Virus record (IMG/VR): IMGVR_UViG_3300016484_000084
Coordinates: 1 to 30,288 of that record
Length of the DNA stretch: 30,288 nt
Strand: one strand, 5' to 3'
Origin: a virus
Lineage: Duplodnaviria > Caudoviricetes
Position numbers and translations under genes: made by a program. Under the pieces are notes generated by a model that had not been told where the DNA came from, made no database searches, and saw nothing but the letters and a program-made list of their open reading frames with translations. This document shows, one piece after another, positions 3 through 30,288 of the stretch (position 1 is the stretch's first letter; each line of letters begins with the position of its first letter).

Positions 3-71
3 GCCATTGGAAACGGACAAGTCCCATTGTGTGCCGCAACAGCATGGAGATTTTTGAATGACCAAATCTGA
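3..71 (+). CDS. C-terminal end of a C5 cytosine DNA methyltransferase (partial)
   Basis: Frame 3 reads AIGNGQVPLCAATAWRFLNDQI*, matching C5-MTase motif X (GNxxxP); not in the ORF track. Confidence 0.7.
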   Translation, partial: AIGNGQVPLCAATAWRFLNDQI

Positions 72-358: not shown

Positions 359-602
359 TGCCAACCAAGAGCAGATCGTTTCAGCCCTCCGCGCTGCTGG
401 CGCTTACGTCTGGATCATTGGCCTACCAGTTGACCTTTTGGTTGGCTACAAAGGCCAGACATTTCTGGTCGAGGTCAAAACGGACTCTAAAAAGCGTTTA
501 ACGGCCCTACAAGCAGATTTTTTTGAGAATTGGTCTGGAAGTACGCTGGCGCGTATCGATGGGCCTGAAGCCGCATTAAGAATGATTGGAGTTGTGAAAT
601 GA
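336..602 (+). CDS. PD-(D/E)XK nuclease, VRR-NUC/resolvase-like
   Basis: PVDLLVGYKGQTFLVEVK catalytic pattern; N-terminal RVDANQ. Confidence 0.75.
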   Translation: MRYAKRVDANQEQIVSALRAAGAYVWIIGLPVDLLVGYKGQTFLVEVKTDSKKRLTALQADFFENWSGSTLARIDGPEAALRMIGVVK

Positions 603-1441
603 ATCCGTTTTTGATAAATGAACCCACTTGCATTAGTTTTTCTGGCGGCAGAACGTCAGCTTATATGCTTTGGCGGGTGCTTGAAGCGCATGGCGGCAAG
701 TTGCCAGATGATGCTGTGGTGTGTTTCGCCAACACAGGGAAGGAAGATGAGGCGACTTTGCGTTTTGTTCGTGATTGTGAAACGCATTGGAATGTGCCGA
801 TTGTTTGGCTTGAATATCAAGACGCTGAAGAATCAAAAGATAGATTCAAAGTCGTGACGTATGAAACAGCCAGCAGAAACGGTGAGCCATTTGAAGCTGT
901 CATTCGCAAGAAAAACTATTTACCAAATCCTGTGACTCGTTTTTGCACGATTGAAATGAAAATCCGAACGATAGCCAATTATTTGTTTTCAATCGGATTA
1001 TGCGAAACAAGGTCGGAAGGAGAATATATGTCTTGGGTTGGTATAAGGGCAGACGAGCCTCGCAGATCAGCCAAAATTCCACGAGACAGGACTCCATTGG
1101 TGACTGCTGGTGTTGGCAAAGAAGAAATAGGAGAATTTTGGAAACGCCAACCATTTGACCTTGAGTTGCCTAATTTCAATGGAGTTACATATCACGGGAA
1201 TTGCGATTTATGTTTTCTCAAGGGTGAATCTCAAACCAGAAGCCTGATTGCAGAAAAACCTGAACGAGCATTATGGTGGGCAAAAATGGAGGCTCTGGCT
1301 CTGGCTCTGGCAAGCAAGCCTGATGGTGCGCGGTTTAGAAAAGACCGAGATTCTTACCAATCCATGTACAACTATGCGCTGAATCAAGTGCCAATGTTTG
1401 ACAACCCCGACGAATCTATTGCTTGTTTTTGTGGAGATTAA
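599..1441 (+). CDS. PAPS reductase-like / adenine nucleotide alpha-hydrolase family protein
   Basis: PP-loop SFSGGRTS, FANTGKE, RFCT, GIRADE, GNCDLC, terminal CFC. Confidence 0.85.
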   Translation: MNPFLINEPTCISFSGGRTSAYMLWRVLEAHGGKLPDDAVVCFANTGKEDEATLRFVRDCETHWNVPIVWLEYQDAEESKDRFKVVTYETASRNGEPFEAVIRKKNYLPNPVTRFCTIEMKIRTIANYLFSIGLCETRSEGEYMSWVGIRADEPRRSAKIPRDRTPLVTAGVGKEEIGEFWKRQPFDLELPNFNGVTYHGNCDLCFLKGESQTRSLIAEKPERALWWAKMEALALALASKPDGARFRKDRDSYQSMYNYALNQVPMFDNPDESIACFCGD

Positions 1442-3588: not shown

Positions 3589-4092
3589 ATGGCTGGTTTA
3601 AATTCTAACTTGACGCAAGATTTGTTACACGAAATTTTTGAATATCGTGATGGCGAATTGTTTTGGCGAGTAAACTCTGGCAACAGAAAAAACCTTGCTG
3701 GATCAAGGTTGAAAACAATAAACAATCATGGATATTTAACTGTTTGCATTCAGCAAAAACAGTACTTAGTTCATCGAGTGATCTATTCAATGTTTTATGG
3801 TGATTTTGATGGACTGATTGACCACATTGATGGCAATAGACTAAACAACCGCATTGAAAATCTAAGGTTGGCAACCCACAGTCAAAATAGTTTCAATTCA
3901 AAACTTTATAAAAACAATAAAACTGGCATCAAAGGTGTATCTTATGTCGCTAAAGACGATAAATTCATAGCTCGTTGTCAAACTAAAGGACAATCAAAGT
4001 ATTTGGGTTCTTTTGATTCTCTTGAGCAAGCGGATGCTGTTTTAAGGGCTTATCGTTTAAGCAGTCATAAGGAGTTTGCCAATCATGGATAA
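3589..4092 (+). CDS. HNH homing endonuclease with AP2-like C-terminal domain
   Basis: HRVIY...IDHIDGNRLNNRIENLR, NKTGIKGVS, YLGSF; more AT-rich than its flanks. Confidence 0.92.
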   Translation: MAGLNSNLTQDLLHEIFEYRDGELFWRVNSGNRKNLAGSRLKTINNHGYLTVCIQQKQYLVHRVIYSMFYGDFDGLIDHIDGNRLNNRIENLRLATHSQNSFNSKLYKNNKTGIKGVSYVAKDDKFIARCQTKGQSKYLGSFDSLEQADAVLRAYRLSSHKEFANHG

Positions 4093-26735: not shown

Positions 26736-27482
26736 ATTGATCCTTTCACCCTTCTCATGGCGGCACAAGGAATCGTTGCTGGCATACGGCAGGGGTGTGA
26801 ATTTCTGCGAGAAGGCAAAGCCCAAATCGGAGAGGTCAAAAAAGCTATCGGTGAAGTTAAGGCTTTTGTTGGCGAGGCAAAAGGCGTTTGGGGAGAGCTT
26901 CAAAGTCTCTGGGCGATGGTTTCGGGTCTTTTCGGCGCTCAGAAACCAAAGCAAGCTCAACAAAGACCTGTCATCGCCAACGACACGACCACAGAACGTG
27001 TTAATAAAACCGAAAAAAATGAACATGAGCCATATCGAGAGCTGAGTTATGAAGAATATCAAGCTCAAGCCATCCACGACATTTGCGAGAAGCTCAAGAC
27101 GTTTTTTGAGATCAAACGGCAGCTTGCAGAGCATTGCCACAAACTAGAAGAGGAGTCCAAGACCACCACAGACATTGAAGGCGCGGCACTTGACAGGATT
27201 CAGATTGAAATGCAAATGGAACAAATGACAGTGCAGATTCGTGAGGCCATGATCTACACGCCCAAGGACATTGGGTTGCAATCCATCTACACACGATTCC
27301 TTCAGATGTACGACCAAATTTTGGAAGAGCGTGCGTTTGACCGCGAGTTGAAAGCCAAGAAAGCAAGGGATGAAAAATGGCAACGCGAGTACCGCAGCAA
27401 CCTTCTAAAGGCGAAATTGGGATACGCAATAGTGGTAGCAATCGCGGCTCTGTGGATGATGGGACTGTTTTCTCTTCTATGA
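26736..27482 (+). CDS. Coiled-coil membrane-anchored protein with probable ATT start
   Basis: GAGGT-5 nt-ATT GAT CCT TTC (M)DPFTLL; first ATG at 26757 has no SD; C-terminal TM. Confidence 0.7.
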   Translation: MDPFTLLMAAQGIVAGIRQGCEFLREGKAQIGEVKKAIGEVKAFVGEAKGVWGELQSLWAMVSGLFGAQKPKQAQQRPVIANDTTTERVNKTEKNEHEPYRELSYEEYQAQAIHDICEKLKTFFEIKRQLAEHCHKLEEESKTTTDIEGAALDRIQIEMQMEQMTVQIREAMIYTPKDIGLQSIYTRFLQMYDQILEERAFDRELKAKKARDEKWQREYRSNLLKAKLGYAIVVAIAALWMMGLFSLL

Positions 27483-27661
27483 CTGAATTCAAGTTTTGGG
27501 TGATTATTGTCACGCTGCTGATTTTTTTGCTGTTCATGATGTCACTTGGTTTGGTGTATTTGGACAAAAAGATCAAAAAGGCAGAGGCAATCCTGATTCG
27601 TGCCGAACAACTGGACAAGAAGTCCAAACCGAAGATTGAACCTGAGTCTGAAAAGGAATAG
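27479..27661 (+). CDS. Small membrane protein (N-terminal TM, charged tail)
   Basis: ATGA coupling; FWVIIVTLLIFLLFMMSLGLVYL; alternative upstream starts at 27377 or 27452. Confidence 0.65.
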   Translation: MTEFKFWVIIVTLLIFLLFMMSLGLVYLDKKIKKAEAILIRAEQLDKKSKPKIEPESEKE

Positions 27662-27663
27662 TC

Positions 27664-28170
27664 ATGTTACCTATCGTTGCTGGCATCGTTGCCAACCTCA
27701 TCAACAACGGGATGCACAAGGTCGCCGACCAAGTGATCGAAAAAGGCGTTGACGCTGTGCAGGAAAAGCTGGGCATCGAACTGAAGCCCGAAGGCGAAGC
27801 CACCCCCGAGTACAACGCCAAGCTGTCCGCCGAGGCGATGAAGCATGAAGAGTTCATGGCTGAGCTGGATGAGAAAAGCCGACAACGTGCCACCGACATG
27901 CAGATGGCCGCAATGCAGTCTACAGATGTAATGATTCGTAGGTTTCTGTACTACTACGCTTGGTACTGGGGTCTGTTTGCTGGCGCTTATTTCTTTGCTG
28001 TTTCATTCTTGCCCGTTGAGAACCGCAACCGCGACTTCGTGAACATCATCTTGGGCTTCTTGATTGGTACTGCGGTGCCAGCAATCATCGCCTTCTTCTA
28101 CGGCCAAGTGAGCAAGAACCGTGAAGATAACCTAAAGCAAAAGGCAGCACCTGCCGGGGGTGACAAATGA
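27664..28170 (+). CDS. Putative holin
   Basis: Two C-terminal TM helices ending IIAFFYG; directly upstream of the endolysin. Confidence 0.7.
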   Translation: MLPIVAGIVANLINNGMHKVADQVIEKGVDAVQEKLGIELKPEGEATPEYNAKLSAEAMKHEEFMAELDEKSRQRATDMQMAAMQSTDVMIRRFLYYYAWYWGLFAGAYFFAVSFLPVENRNRDFVNIILGFLIGTAVPAIIAFFYGQVSKNREDNLKQKAAPAGGDK

Positions 28171-28823
28171 TCCCAACCATTGCTGACCTTCAGGCCGCCA
28201 AAGTCAAGAACCCTGAAAAGTGGATTGACGCAGTGGTGGCCACCTGCCAAGAGTTCGAGATCAACACACCACAGCGCGTTGCAGCATTCTTAGCGCAAAC
28301 CAGCCACGAGTCTGGTGGTTACACCATGCTCAAAGAAAACCTGAACTACCGCGCCGCAACACTGGCGGCATGTTGGCCAAATCGTTTTGCGGTTCTTGGC
28401 CCCGACAAAAAGCCAATAAAGAAGGACGGCAAGCTGGTGCCAACCAAAGTTGCTGAAGCCATAGCGGGTAAACCCGAACTCATTGCGCCGCTTGTATATA
28501 GCAACCGTATGGGCAACGGCCCCGCTGAATCAGGTGATGCTTTTCGGTACATTGGCAGAGGTCTCAAGCAGCTCACAGGAAAGGACAACTATGCGAGATG
28601 TGGACGCGATCTGGGTGTTGATCTTGTCGGTAATCCTGATCTTTTGCTTGAACCACTGTACGCCGCAAGAAGCGCCGGATGGTTCTGGAAAGCGAACAAC
28701 CTATCCTCATACGCCGACAAAGGCGATCTAGAAGGCATGACCAAAAAGATCAACGGTGGTCTAATTGGTTATGCCCAGCGCAAAGCACTCTATGACAAAT
28801 GTTTGGCTGCCATCAACACATAA
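28167..28823 (+). CDS. Endolysin, glycoside hydrolase family 19
   Basis: AAFLAQTSHES, ENLNY, YIGRGLKQLTGKDNY, SAGWFW, TKKINGG. Confidence 0.95.
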   Translation: MIPTIADLQAAKVKNPEKWIDAVVATCQEFEINTPQRVAAFLAQTSHESGGYTMLKENLNYRAATLAACWPNRFAVLGPDKKPIKKDGKLVPTKVAEAIAGKPELIAPLVYSNRMGNGPAESGDAFRYIGRGLKQLTGKDNYARCGRDLGVDLVGNPDLLLEPLYAARSAGWFWKANNLSSYADKGDLEGMTKKINGGLIGYAQRKALYDKCLAAINT

Positions 28824-28909
28824 CGCATTTCTTGGCATCTGGCGCACTTGTAAAGCAGTGCTAGGCAGTCTCTTTTGCCTTGGAATTCTTCCCATCTATG
28901 TCTGCACAT
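28790..28909 (-). CDS. 39-aa Cys/His mini-protein
   Basis: MCRHRWEE...YKCARCQEMRY...; AGGGGG 5 nt before the ATG; not in the ORF track. Confidence 0.5.
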   Translation of the reverse strand: MCRHRWEEFQGKRDCLALLYKCARCQEMRYVLMAAKHLS

Positions 28910-29118
28910 TTCATCCCCCTGATGTAGACGGCAAATGATGCCACGGTGTCTTGAGCGAATGGGATTTTAAATTCGTTCTCAAGATTTGTGGCGATTTCCT
29001 CAATCACTTCGTTTCTGAATTTCTCAAGTTCTTTGTTTAGATTGGTCATGGCTTTGGCGATCCGTTTGGTGTTGAGTTTGCGGTCAAGTTCCTCAAAGGC
29101 TTCATCTTCAGGAGTCAT
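28861..29118 (-). CDS. Hypothetical protein
   Basis: MTPEDEAFEE...RNEVIEE...DTVASFAVYIRGMK; AAGGAG SD lies in the junction repeat. Confidence 0.75.
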   Translation of the reverse strand: MTPEDEAFEELDRKLNTKRIAKAMTNLNKELEKFRNEVIEEIATNLENEFKIPFAQDTVASFAVYIRGMKCADIDGKNSKAKETA

Positions 29119-29780
29119 GTGTTCTTCTCCTTGAGTTGATAGTCCTTGAACACAGTCCCTTTGCTCGCGTCACCCTTCCAACATTCTTTGACCCACCCAC
29201 GTTTACCTGACTTGTAGGTGCGCCAATGACCTCTGACTTGGTGTCTGCGTGGGCTTGCGTGTGTCCCGCCTTGCGGGTCGTTCTTGGCCTTTGGTGGCTC
29301 AATTTCTACTGTGTGCCAGTCAAACGTCAGGGCTGACTTGCCTTTGGCTTTGCGCTTGGCGTTGATGAATGTACGTTGTGGTGTTGGCTTGTATGCTTGC
29401 GCTTCGCCAGCCAGTTTCAGCAAAACCGCATAGACCATGCGTAGGACGGGCAGGATTTCGTCTTGCGTGACCTTCCTGCCGTGGTTGTAATACTTCATTC
29501 CTTCGTCTGTCAGGATGTAGGCAAACGGCTCAAAATACTTTGTTGGTGCAATGGTGCATCCAGCCACCGTGACGCTGTTTTCTCCTGCGGTTAGCCAAAG
29601 ACTGAACTTCCTGTTTTTGCTGTCTACCCCCGCAATTCCTGTTCGTTTGAATGGCAGATTCATCACCACATCTGCGGGTATGTGCTTGTCAAAGATAGGC
29701 TCCATCATGCCAACATCAAACCACAAAGCAGTTTCAGGCTCTGGAGCAAGTCTGACCGCTTCGCAAATCAAGGGTGTCAT
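29115..29780 (-). CDS. Phage protein with a C-terminal basic His/Arg motif (SPRRHQVRGHWR)
   Basis: 221 aa from the junction-repeat ATG; ends LKEKNT*. Confidence 0.8.
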   Translation of the reverse strand: MTPLICEAVRLAPEPETALWFDVGMMEPIFDKHIPADVVMNLPFKRTGIAGVDSKNRKFSLWLTAGENSVTVAGCTIAPTKYFEPFAYILTDEGMKYYNHGRKVTQDEILPVLRMVYAVLLKLAGEAQAYKPTPQRTFINAKRKAKGKSALTFDWHTVEIEPPKAKNDPQGGTHASPRRHQVRGHWRTYKSGKRGWVKECWKGDASKGTVFKDYQLKEKNT

Positions 29781-30043
29781 GTGTTCTTCTCCTTGAGTTG
29801 TATCTGCGCCCAATGCACACCATCACGCCATGCGCCAGCGGTTTGACCATAGTTGTTGGACTGAATCAGTCCTTGATCTATCTCGGCTGGGTCTAGAGTT
29901 TTCCATTCACACTTGGGTTGCACCAATTCAGTTGCCGCATACGACATGGCTTGCCCTAACTTCTTGACCAGCACTTGTTCAATCAGGGGCACGATGGCCT
30001 CTTGTAGCCACTCACGCAAGGCTTCCTCTTGTTTTGGCGTCAT
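29777..30043 (-). CDS. Hypothetical protein (88 aa)
   Basis: Starts MTPKQ at a junction repeat; ends LKEKNT*. Confidence 0.75.
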   Translation of the reverse strand: MTPKQEEALREWLQEAIVPLIEQVLVKKLGQAMSYAATELVQPKCEWKTLDPAEIDQGLIQSNNYGQTAGAWRDGVHWAQIQLKEKNT

Positions 30044-30177
30044 GTGTTCTTCTCCTTGGGCTTGTTGATCCAACACATCCAGTGATAGACAGTGCCTGAA
30101 TCATTCCAAAACCTGTCTCCCACCTTAAACAGCCCAAAGCATCGTGGGCATTGATGCGGCTTAAATAAATCGTTCAT
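30040..30177 (-). CDS. 45-aa putative Zn-binding protein
   Basis: MNDLFKPHQCPRC...YHWMCWINKPKEKNT*; runs exactly from one repeat to the next. Confidence 0.7.
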   Translation of the reverse strand: MNDLFKPHQCPRCFGLFKVGDRFWNDSGTVYHWMCWINKPKEKNT

Positions 30178-30288
30178 GTGTTCTTCTCCTTGAGTTTGGC
30201 TTCAACTGCACGACCAAATGCTAGGCGGTCTTCTGTTTCCGCAGGTACGGTCAGCCATGTTTTGAACATTTCCTCATCCGTCAGCCCA
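30174..30288 (-). CDS. Hypothetical protein, 3' end (partial)
   Basis: GLTDEEMF...FGRAVEAKLKEKNT*. Confidence 0.7.
   Translation of the reverse strand, partial: GLTDEEMFKTWLTVPAETEDRLAFGRAVEAKLKEKNT

Follow-up and report, generated by a model that had tools for sequence, protein, structure and literature searches.

A 19-base repeat in the window (the whole stretch of viral DNA analysed, 30,288 bases) is a dual-coded gene junction that many unrelated phages have in common. Whole genes come, go and change order at this junction. The repeat is likely (probability roughly 0.7) to be a short boundary sequence for general homology-driven recombination and not the site of an integrase. From comparison of the sequences, we infer that the repeat itself drives this recombination.

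The repeat and its gene junctions

The source contig is a linear viral record, 88% complete, with a P22-like portal, coat and terminase and a GH19 endolysin. The repeat array lies in a leftward series of small genes, oriented toward the endolysin and interrupted by the contig end. Its features are as follows.

30174..30288, minus strand: 3' end of a member of the WVGLTDEE...AIEAKLKEKNT protein family (37 aa; gene truncated by the contig end)
30174..30192, minus strand: repeat copy R1, inside the longer family tail box EAKLKEKNT plus stop (about 30174-30203)
30040..30177, minus strand: g45, 45-aa cassette gene, Cys/His-rich, with no family match
30040..30058, minus strand: repeat copy R2, exact motif match
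29777..30043, minus strand: g88, 88-aa cassette gene, mosaic
29777..29795, minus strand: repeat copy R3, exact motif match
29115..29780, minus strand: g221, 221-aa cassette gene, AcrVA2-like lead
29115..29133, minus strand: repeat copy R4, exact motif match
28861..29118, minus strand: g85, 85 aa, last gene of the leftward operon
28167..28823, plus strand: GH19 endolysin gene, convergent, bounding the array and outside the cassettes

The sequence-only reading had described four perfect copies at consecutive gene boundaries, each with a triple role, and both points were confirmed. Four exact minus-strand copies lie at four consecutive junctions with spacings of 662, 263 and 134, where 0.01 would be expected (100 shuffles), and each supplies the upstream frame's KEKNT and stop, an AAGGAG ribosome site (SD) and an ATGA overlap. 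Pairwise, exact identity between the copies runs to 19, 23, 23, 20, 20 and 25 nt. The proposed scan of the rest of the genome gave no additional copy in the window at up to 3 mismatches, and at the remaining SD+ATGA junctions of the window 6 to 10 of the 16 core positions are different. The 66-nt regions around the copies fold no better than shuffles (z +1.3, +0.1, -0.5 and -1.5; RNA parameters), the repeat is non-palindromic, and no promoter-like site was found in window 28600-30288.

The M-T-P start also ascribed to the pattern is present in three of the four downstream genes (MND, MTP, MTP, MTP) but does not belong to the element. Among 117 hits to the tail (see below), 110 have the ATGA overlap with the SD inside the upstream gene, and the second downstream residue at these 110 junctions is T in 36, S in 24, K in 18, N in 14 and I in 12, the second codon beginning with A because of the overlap. 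M-T-P is kept in the 221-aa family regardless of the preceding junction, and is incidental.

At the far end of the array, relatives of g85 usually end in a different ATGA junction (RGMKR/K plus stop). The window's g85 lacks this terminal junction and reads through to a later stop, running 15 codons further toward the endolysin (28861-28910, minus strand); no terminator-like site was scored at this end. Elsewhere, the right arm carries a PAPS-reductase-like gene (phrog_424; 599-1441, plus strand), in the region of which other relatives have a methylase-like or unrelated gene, and the ORF at 3589-4092 (plus strand) is presumably HNH-type endonuclease-like, to judge by its motif.

Distribution of the repeat and the family from which it derives

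The motif scan was extended to other viral contigs. The exact 19-mer is estimated to occur in approximately 1,800 viral stretches, mostly from freshwater samples (extrapolated from 5 of 64 parts of the collection, which returned 125 stretches). Near-copies with 1 to 4 mismatches in these 125 loci were all (89/89) on the strand of an exact copy. In 37 long records, picked for carrying the motif, there were 1 to 6 copies each, often 1, on one strand per record, and the backwards control gave 0. A homologue of the window's portal was found in only 3 of 23 near-complete carriers, and some carriers encode Sak, ERF or a DNA polymerase of their own; the repeat is common to mostly unrelated phage backbones.

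No cultured carrier of the repeat was found in the GenBank phage set, nor any match to g221 or to one family protein; motif matches came from the metagenome-assembled DSL-LC04/LC05 and spring contigs. All 7 motif hits among 185,579 genomes fell in MAG contigs of betaproteobacteria; as these could be phage contigs caught up in the binning, they are a weak hint of a betaproteobacterial host. The main texts of the literature searched contained no description of the motif, peptide or architecture.

The origin of the repeat was deduced from the proteins that it joins. At 184 junctions, 125 upstream proteins join one cluster through a shared C-terminal module (WVGLTDEE, a variable stretch, then AIEAKLKEKNT), and the downstream genes form 112 clusters. 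When family members were chosen by the internal box alone, 43 of 97 ended within 1 mismatch of the core; 37 of the 97 ended in KEKNT and most others in variants. On the basis of the cluster module and these independently chosen members, the repeat is the 3' end of a large small-protein family, for which no Pfam match and no firm atlas match was obtained. The four upstream proteins of the window had been called dissimilar apart from their tail, and this held: the truncated first one scored 33 bits against the WVGLTDEE profile and the other three 0-1 bit, within shuffles. Unrelated genes have captured the family's 3' end; g45, g88 and g221, for example, have only its last 16-25 bases.

The possibility that g88 is a diverged tail-family member was rejected, as the family profile gave no support. 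A second conserved box (GLTDEE) is seen at the very end of the contig (about 30270-30288, minus strand); in family members the WVGLTDEE box lies 25-65 codons before the stop, in approximately 2,600 stretches (loci L511-L630). Several g88 relatives cease to match the window at about 29903, the place equivalent to this box, and genes are therefore shuffled internally too.

Frozen codons

Codon usage was counted by searching with the amino-acid pattern EAKLKEKNT plus stop, by which 122 stretches gave 117 hits after removal of similar flanks. The codons for E, A, K and L were GAA in 112, GCC in 105, AAA in 88 and CTC in 67, against backgrounds of 58, 23, 58 and 9%; those for K, E and K were AAG in 114, GAG in 104 and AAG in 102 (background 42% for each); and those for N and T were AAC in 112 and ACA in 110 (61 and 36%). 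The modal 30-mer was exact in 50 of the 117. The Ile one codon upstream of the box is free (ATC 43, ATT 37). The first four tail codons and the K-N spacer lie outside the SD and start, and the earlier argument for a constraint at the DNA level was thus upheld, the synonymous positions being frozen and not freely varying even outside the ribosome site. The same codons recur in g221 tails (AAG 47/51, AAC 49/51). The internal WVGLTDEE box, where there is no next gene, is frozen too (GGG 85, CTG 86, ACG 83, GAT 94 and GAG 87; n = 98). The pattern fits homogenisation through exchange at short boxes, for which a bound site would be the rival explanation.

It is scarcely credible that KEKNT is instead a shared C-terminal peptide tag, a targeting or degradation signal as the sequence-only reading had allowed. 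The predominance of KEKNT and its variants in the internal-box family would agree with a tag, whereas conservation is at the codon level and g221 homologues end in KEKNT, KENT, KEPQ, KEKP, LRT, KHDH and others, which refutes the tag for the 221-aa gene.

Gene gain, loss and reordering at the repeat

In the relatives, gene order is not fixed and the breakpoints of gene gain and loss sit at the repeat. For the closest relatives of g221 (L126-L128; 92-94%) and of g88 (L206-L208; 87-93%), the match begins at the upstream repeat and stops with the final base of the downstream one, and the neighbours are unlike those of the window; in L129 the match extends 24 bases further. Ten additional repeat-to-repeat matches were found. 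A metagenome search for the g221 tail gave 58 stretches in 51 distinct contexts with 46 scorable downstream partners in 32 families. In L631 and L655, g221 is followed by g88, the reverse of the window order, and g88 is 99.3% and 97.5% identical to the window, respectively, over exactly R2-R3. In L147, g221 is followed by g45, a homologue that is cleanly absent from L149 with like flanks. Among 65 indel pairs, the insert had the repeat or a KENT variant on both sides in L229/L243, L233/L243, L233/L230 and L149/L147, and the repeat on both sides in part in L136/L137 and L126/L127; many pairs at other junctions had no repeat.

The closest long relative, a 32.8-kb contig from an independent run, tracks the window over 27000-29784 (lysis genes, g85 and g221) and departs inside R3, of which it shares only the last 8 nt. 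Loose contig ends in three runs, one of them possibly the source sample, gather at the repeat edges. Repeat-to-repeat "skips" in the contigs of sequencing runs were rejected as deletions of the source genome, because their short side is only 20-29 letters and the family tail common to other genes explains them. The circles for which a search had been suggested were not found, there being 0 tail-to-head g221 junctions in the metagenome contigs.

Turnover was measured in 335 loci with 1,706 SD+ATGA junctions and anchors 88-99% identical. Repeat junctions retained the neighbour in 10-14% of cases, compared with 32-42% for other SD+ATGA junctions up to 2 kb away and 63-67% for more distant ones; as the loci were gathered via the motif and these genes, with relatedness partly removed, these counts are not a random sample. 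Per anchor cluster, the neighbour was never kept in 18/19 and 17/23 for the repeat versus 59/141 and 61/146 for the others (p 8e-6 and 0.006). High turnover could reflect dispensable genes. Of the 19 repeat swaps, 12 had at least 14 nt of shared sequence before the ATG; of the 64 swaps at other junctions, 10 did. In 7 of the 19 downstream-anchored repeat swaps only 0-7 nt were common before the ATG and, together with the 8 nt shared by the long contig, this indicates that the full repeat is not required for movement. The crossover extent ranged from 0 to 41 nt. Neither of the two refuting conditions set out in the sequence-only reading held, and the claim of a linker that lets single genes be inserted, removed or swapped is supported by the relatives, except that the repeat is not obligatory.

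Duplication of junctions around inserted genes

Of 34 g221 relatives, 13 have a 5' junction that matches the 3' junction (4.1 when shuffled), six of the 13 with non-KEKNT sequences. There was no such excess for g88 (8/47 versus 7.1 shuffled) or g85 (0/30). Among genes with neither junction of KEKNT/KENT type, 9 of 531 are flanked by exact repeats of at least 10 bases plus ATGA, compared with 1.1 expected (maximum 5 in 1,000 shuffles) and with 0.3% for non-adjacent junctions of the same locus. These non-KEKNT flanking repeats start at the SD. Duplication of the junction around inserted genes would likely explain how the repeat spreads.

In L130, L176, L179, L242, L295, L296, L345 and L206, single genes have a duplicate of another junction "dialect" (KEPQ, KEKP, GQV, GEQA, ARGQA and others) on either side. 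L253 differs from L221, L227, L249 and L261 by a 1,109-base insert, which is flanked by a direct repeat, near-perfect and about 40 bases long, with SD+ATGA at its end. In L637, L643, L654 and L686, g221 is followed by a mini-gene of 12 codons (MTRDNIRARGEQ), in which the head of one family seems to be fused to another family's tail.

The g221 cargo

For g221, 469 relatives were found at E<=0.001, many of which carry a precomputed PF26125 (AcrVA2-like) assignment, and its atlas score was 0.97 to clusters in which 19-31% carry PF26125. In the C-terminal HxxRGH motif H180, R183 and G184 are invariant and H185 nearly so. AcrVA2 is described as requiring H286, R288 and H291, and its homologues as widespread without Cas12a (10.1101/2022.11.29.518452); the window's g221 has V at the R288-equivalent position. 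Neither sequence comparison nor Foldseek matched the window's g221 (model pLDDT 84) to a solved structure. As a lead, g221 is a candidate AcrVA2/FinQ-like anti-defence gene. Its assignment as a mobile nuclease was rejected, with no support from family, sequence or fold.

Recombination enzymes

Profile scans of the 88%-complete window for ERF, Sak, YqaJ and tyrosine integrase gave no match, and the window's recombination genes would fall in the missing part of the genome. The suggested search for an annealing recombinase gave candidates in relatives and in other carriers. In P22-like relatives retrieved through the endolysin, the site of the array is the distal end of an operon with ERF and the YqaJ exonuclease, both of which were upstream in the same leftward operon in 5/5 scanned (selected from 80 fetched). 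In L343, L345 and L333 this operon ends with a g85-like gene, as in the window, and the other small genes differ; L343 and L345 have the repeat at the operon's distal end, whereas L333 and L337 have it in the right arm.

The 23 near-complete carriers include ERF in 4, Sak in 3, RecT in 1, AAA_24 over the cut-off in 1, an Enc34-type protein in 1 and Rad52 in 0, so that 10 of 23 have any candidate annealing protein. As the sequence-only reading had stated, no dedicated integrase was in view: a tyrosine integrase (PF00589) was found in 1 of the 23 (3 of 37 records). In the tyrosine-integrase carriers G004, G008 and G026, the repeat lies within about 1 kb of the integrase, like the distal end of a lambdoid left operon. 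Minimal pairing is given as 23-27 bp for Red-beta and 31-34 bp for RecA in PMC3945230, a study in which ERF was as efficient as Red-beta. Three of the six window copy pairs (19-20 nt) fall short of the Red-beta minimum.

Comparison with known systems

Integron cassettes are single promoterless genes in a variable, reorderable array served by IntI, an attC hairpin and a single insertion point. The present array resembles them in that single promoterless genes are gained, lost and reordered, and differs in having no IntI, attC hairpin or single insertion point. PeSL cassettes of T4-type phages (Arbiol et al. 2010, PMC2839356; Comeau et al. 2014, PMC4122927), which their authors themselves compare with integrons, are closer. 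As those accounts describe them, small accessory genes are bordered by a repeated expression signal that has SD and ATG at its end; this element is where genes are inserted, deleted or replaced, and there is no dedicated recombinase. They are described, however, as an intergenic promoter plus stem-loop within one phage group, whereas the present element is 16-30 nt, has no promoter or hairpin, lies inside coding sequence where it rewrites the tail of the upstream protein, and is common to unrelated backbones of 30-68 kb. Mini-circles were demonstrated for PeSLs, in contrast to the metagenome contigs here; circles at the reported PeSL frequency of about 1 in 1e5 virions would be undetectable in contigs.

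The boundary-sequence (linker) model of lambdoid mosaicism (Susskind and Botstein 1978 and Clark et al. 2001, as cited in PMC3029335) likewise takes a short conserved gene-boundary sequence, common to both non-homologous partners, as the exchange site, and the array lies in the matching place, the distal accessory region of the recombination operon of a P22-like phage. According to PMC3029335, no boundary sequence can be detected for the majority of mosaic boundaries. In the present case a single sequence occurs at many junctions, across about 1,800 stretches, and its route of spread is visible. ATGA coupling by termination-reinitiation is reported to be common (Huber et al. 2019, PMC6728339) and shares the stop/start overlap with the SD inside the upstream gene, but ordinary overlaps share no sequence between unrelated gene pairs. 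Start Associated Sequences (SAS) of Cluster K mycobacteriophages, for which a role in translation initiation was proposed (PMC3203893), are also described as asymmetric AGGAG-containing repeats just before the ATG of non-structural genes, in one orientation. They differ in sequence and host and are reported as largely stable per gene family, whereas g221 and g88 relatives follow many different junctions with changing neighbours. The features tested set the element apart from both PeSLs and integrons; in its manner of working it resembles PeSL shuffling, and it agrees with the boundary-sequence model. What is new is a boundary element that is promoterless, inside coding sequence and community-wide, with a visible route of propagation.

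Proposed mechanism and alternatives

In the proposed mechanism, a gene would join the operon by two micro-homology joints, at the target's ATGA and at its ribosome site, by which the target junction would be duplicated and the newcomer would acquire the target's tail. A gene flanked by the common junction would then have 16-30 bases at each end identical to those of thousands of junctions, a length that may suffice, or almost suffice, for the single-strand annealing proteins of phages (in the close backbones, ERF with YqaJ). Such a gene would be exchanged more often, each product retaining stop, ribosome site and start in register, and this feedback could spread one junction sequence across the phage community and keep it uniform. 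In its fullest form, unrelated freshwater phages would share a self-propagating 16-30-base coding junction, copied onto each inserted gene, that recruits community-wide plug-in cassettes (anti-defence genes included), which annealing-protein recombination moves between podo- and other backbones, possibly as gene-sized circles. This fullest form is conceivable, and we would sooner bet against it than on it.

A more passive account is unlikely but deserves weight: illegitimate recombination would move the genes, selection would keep those with intact translation signals, and the repeat, raising no exchange itself, would be no more than a good ribosome site, carried along whenever a common gene end is copied or a gene is inserted. 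In accord with this, swaps at other junctions too mostly lie 0-2 nt from the ATG, many insertions have no repeat, the repeat is used only in part in some swaps, and the repeat region is unstructured as mRNA. It does not readily account for a retention of neighbours that is about three times lower than at the other junctions of these regions, for near-identical units in opposite order, or for codons frozen upstream of the SD and in the internal box, which need continuing homogenisation. The bound site mentioned above, at which a phage or host protein or RNA would co-regulate accessory genes with swapping as a secondary effect, is improbable. The single orientation, the restriction to accessory regions, the AGGAG a few bases before the ATG and conserved positions unable to pair with 16S rRNA, as described for SAS (PMC3203893), would all suit it; the frequent occurrence of one copy only, the presence of the same gene with or without the repeat, the sharing of the repeat by backbones with unrelated genes and the similar duplication of other junction sequences do not.

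A true integron-like system, in which a dedicated site-specific recombinase would act on the repeat and yield circular cassettes, is very unlikely and largely refuted. The analogy drawn in the sequence-only reading stands for the single-gene units, the permuted order and the nearness of the repeat to the integrase in three carriers, and fails on the rarity of integrases among carriers and their absence from the window, on a non-palindromic site that forms no hairpin, on the variable crossover extent and many dialects, and on the lack of a circle junction in the metagenome contigs. The reading preferred here is accordingly the boundary sequence used by general recombination.

Significance

The linker question becomes directly testable: the element offers a defined substrate of 19-30 nt, natural products by the thousand and two candidate enzymes; the empty/filled and reordered pairs and the matched control junctions are natural material for the test. 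In practice, the motif can also be used to flag accessory genes, and candidate anti-defence genes, of uncultured freshwater phages. The duplication from SD to ATGA around inserted genes suggests how linkers originate. If the reading as a self-propagating junction is true, it would provide a direct, countable case of the contested linker model and a mechanism by which linkers arise and take over.
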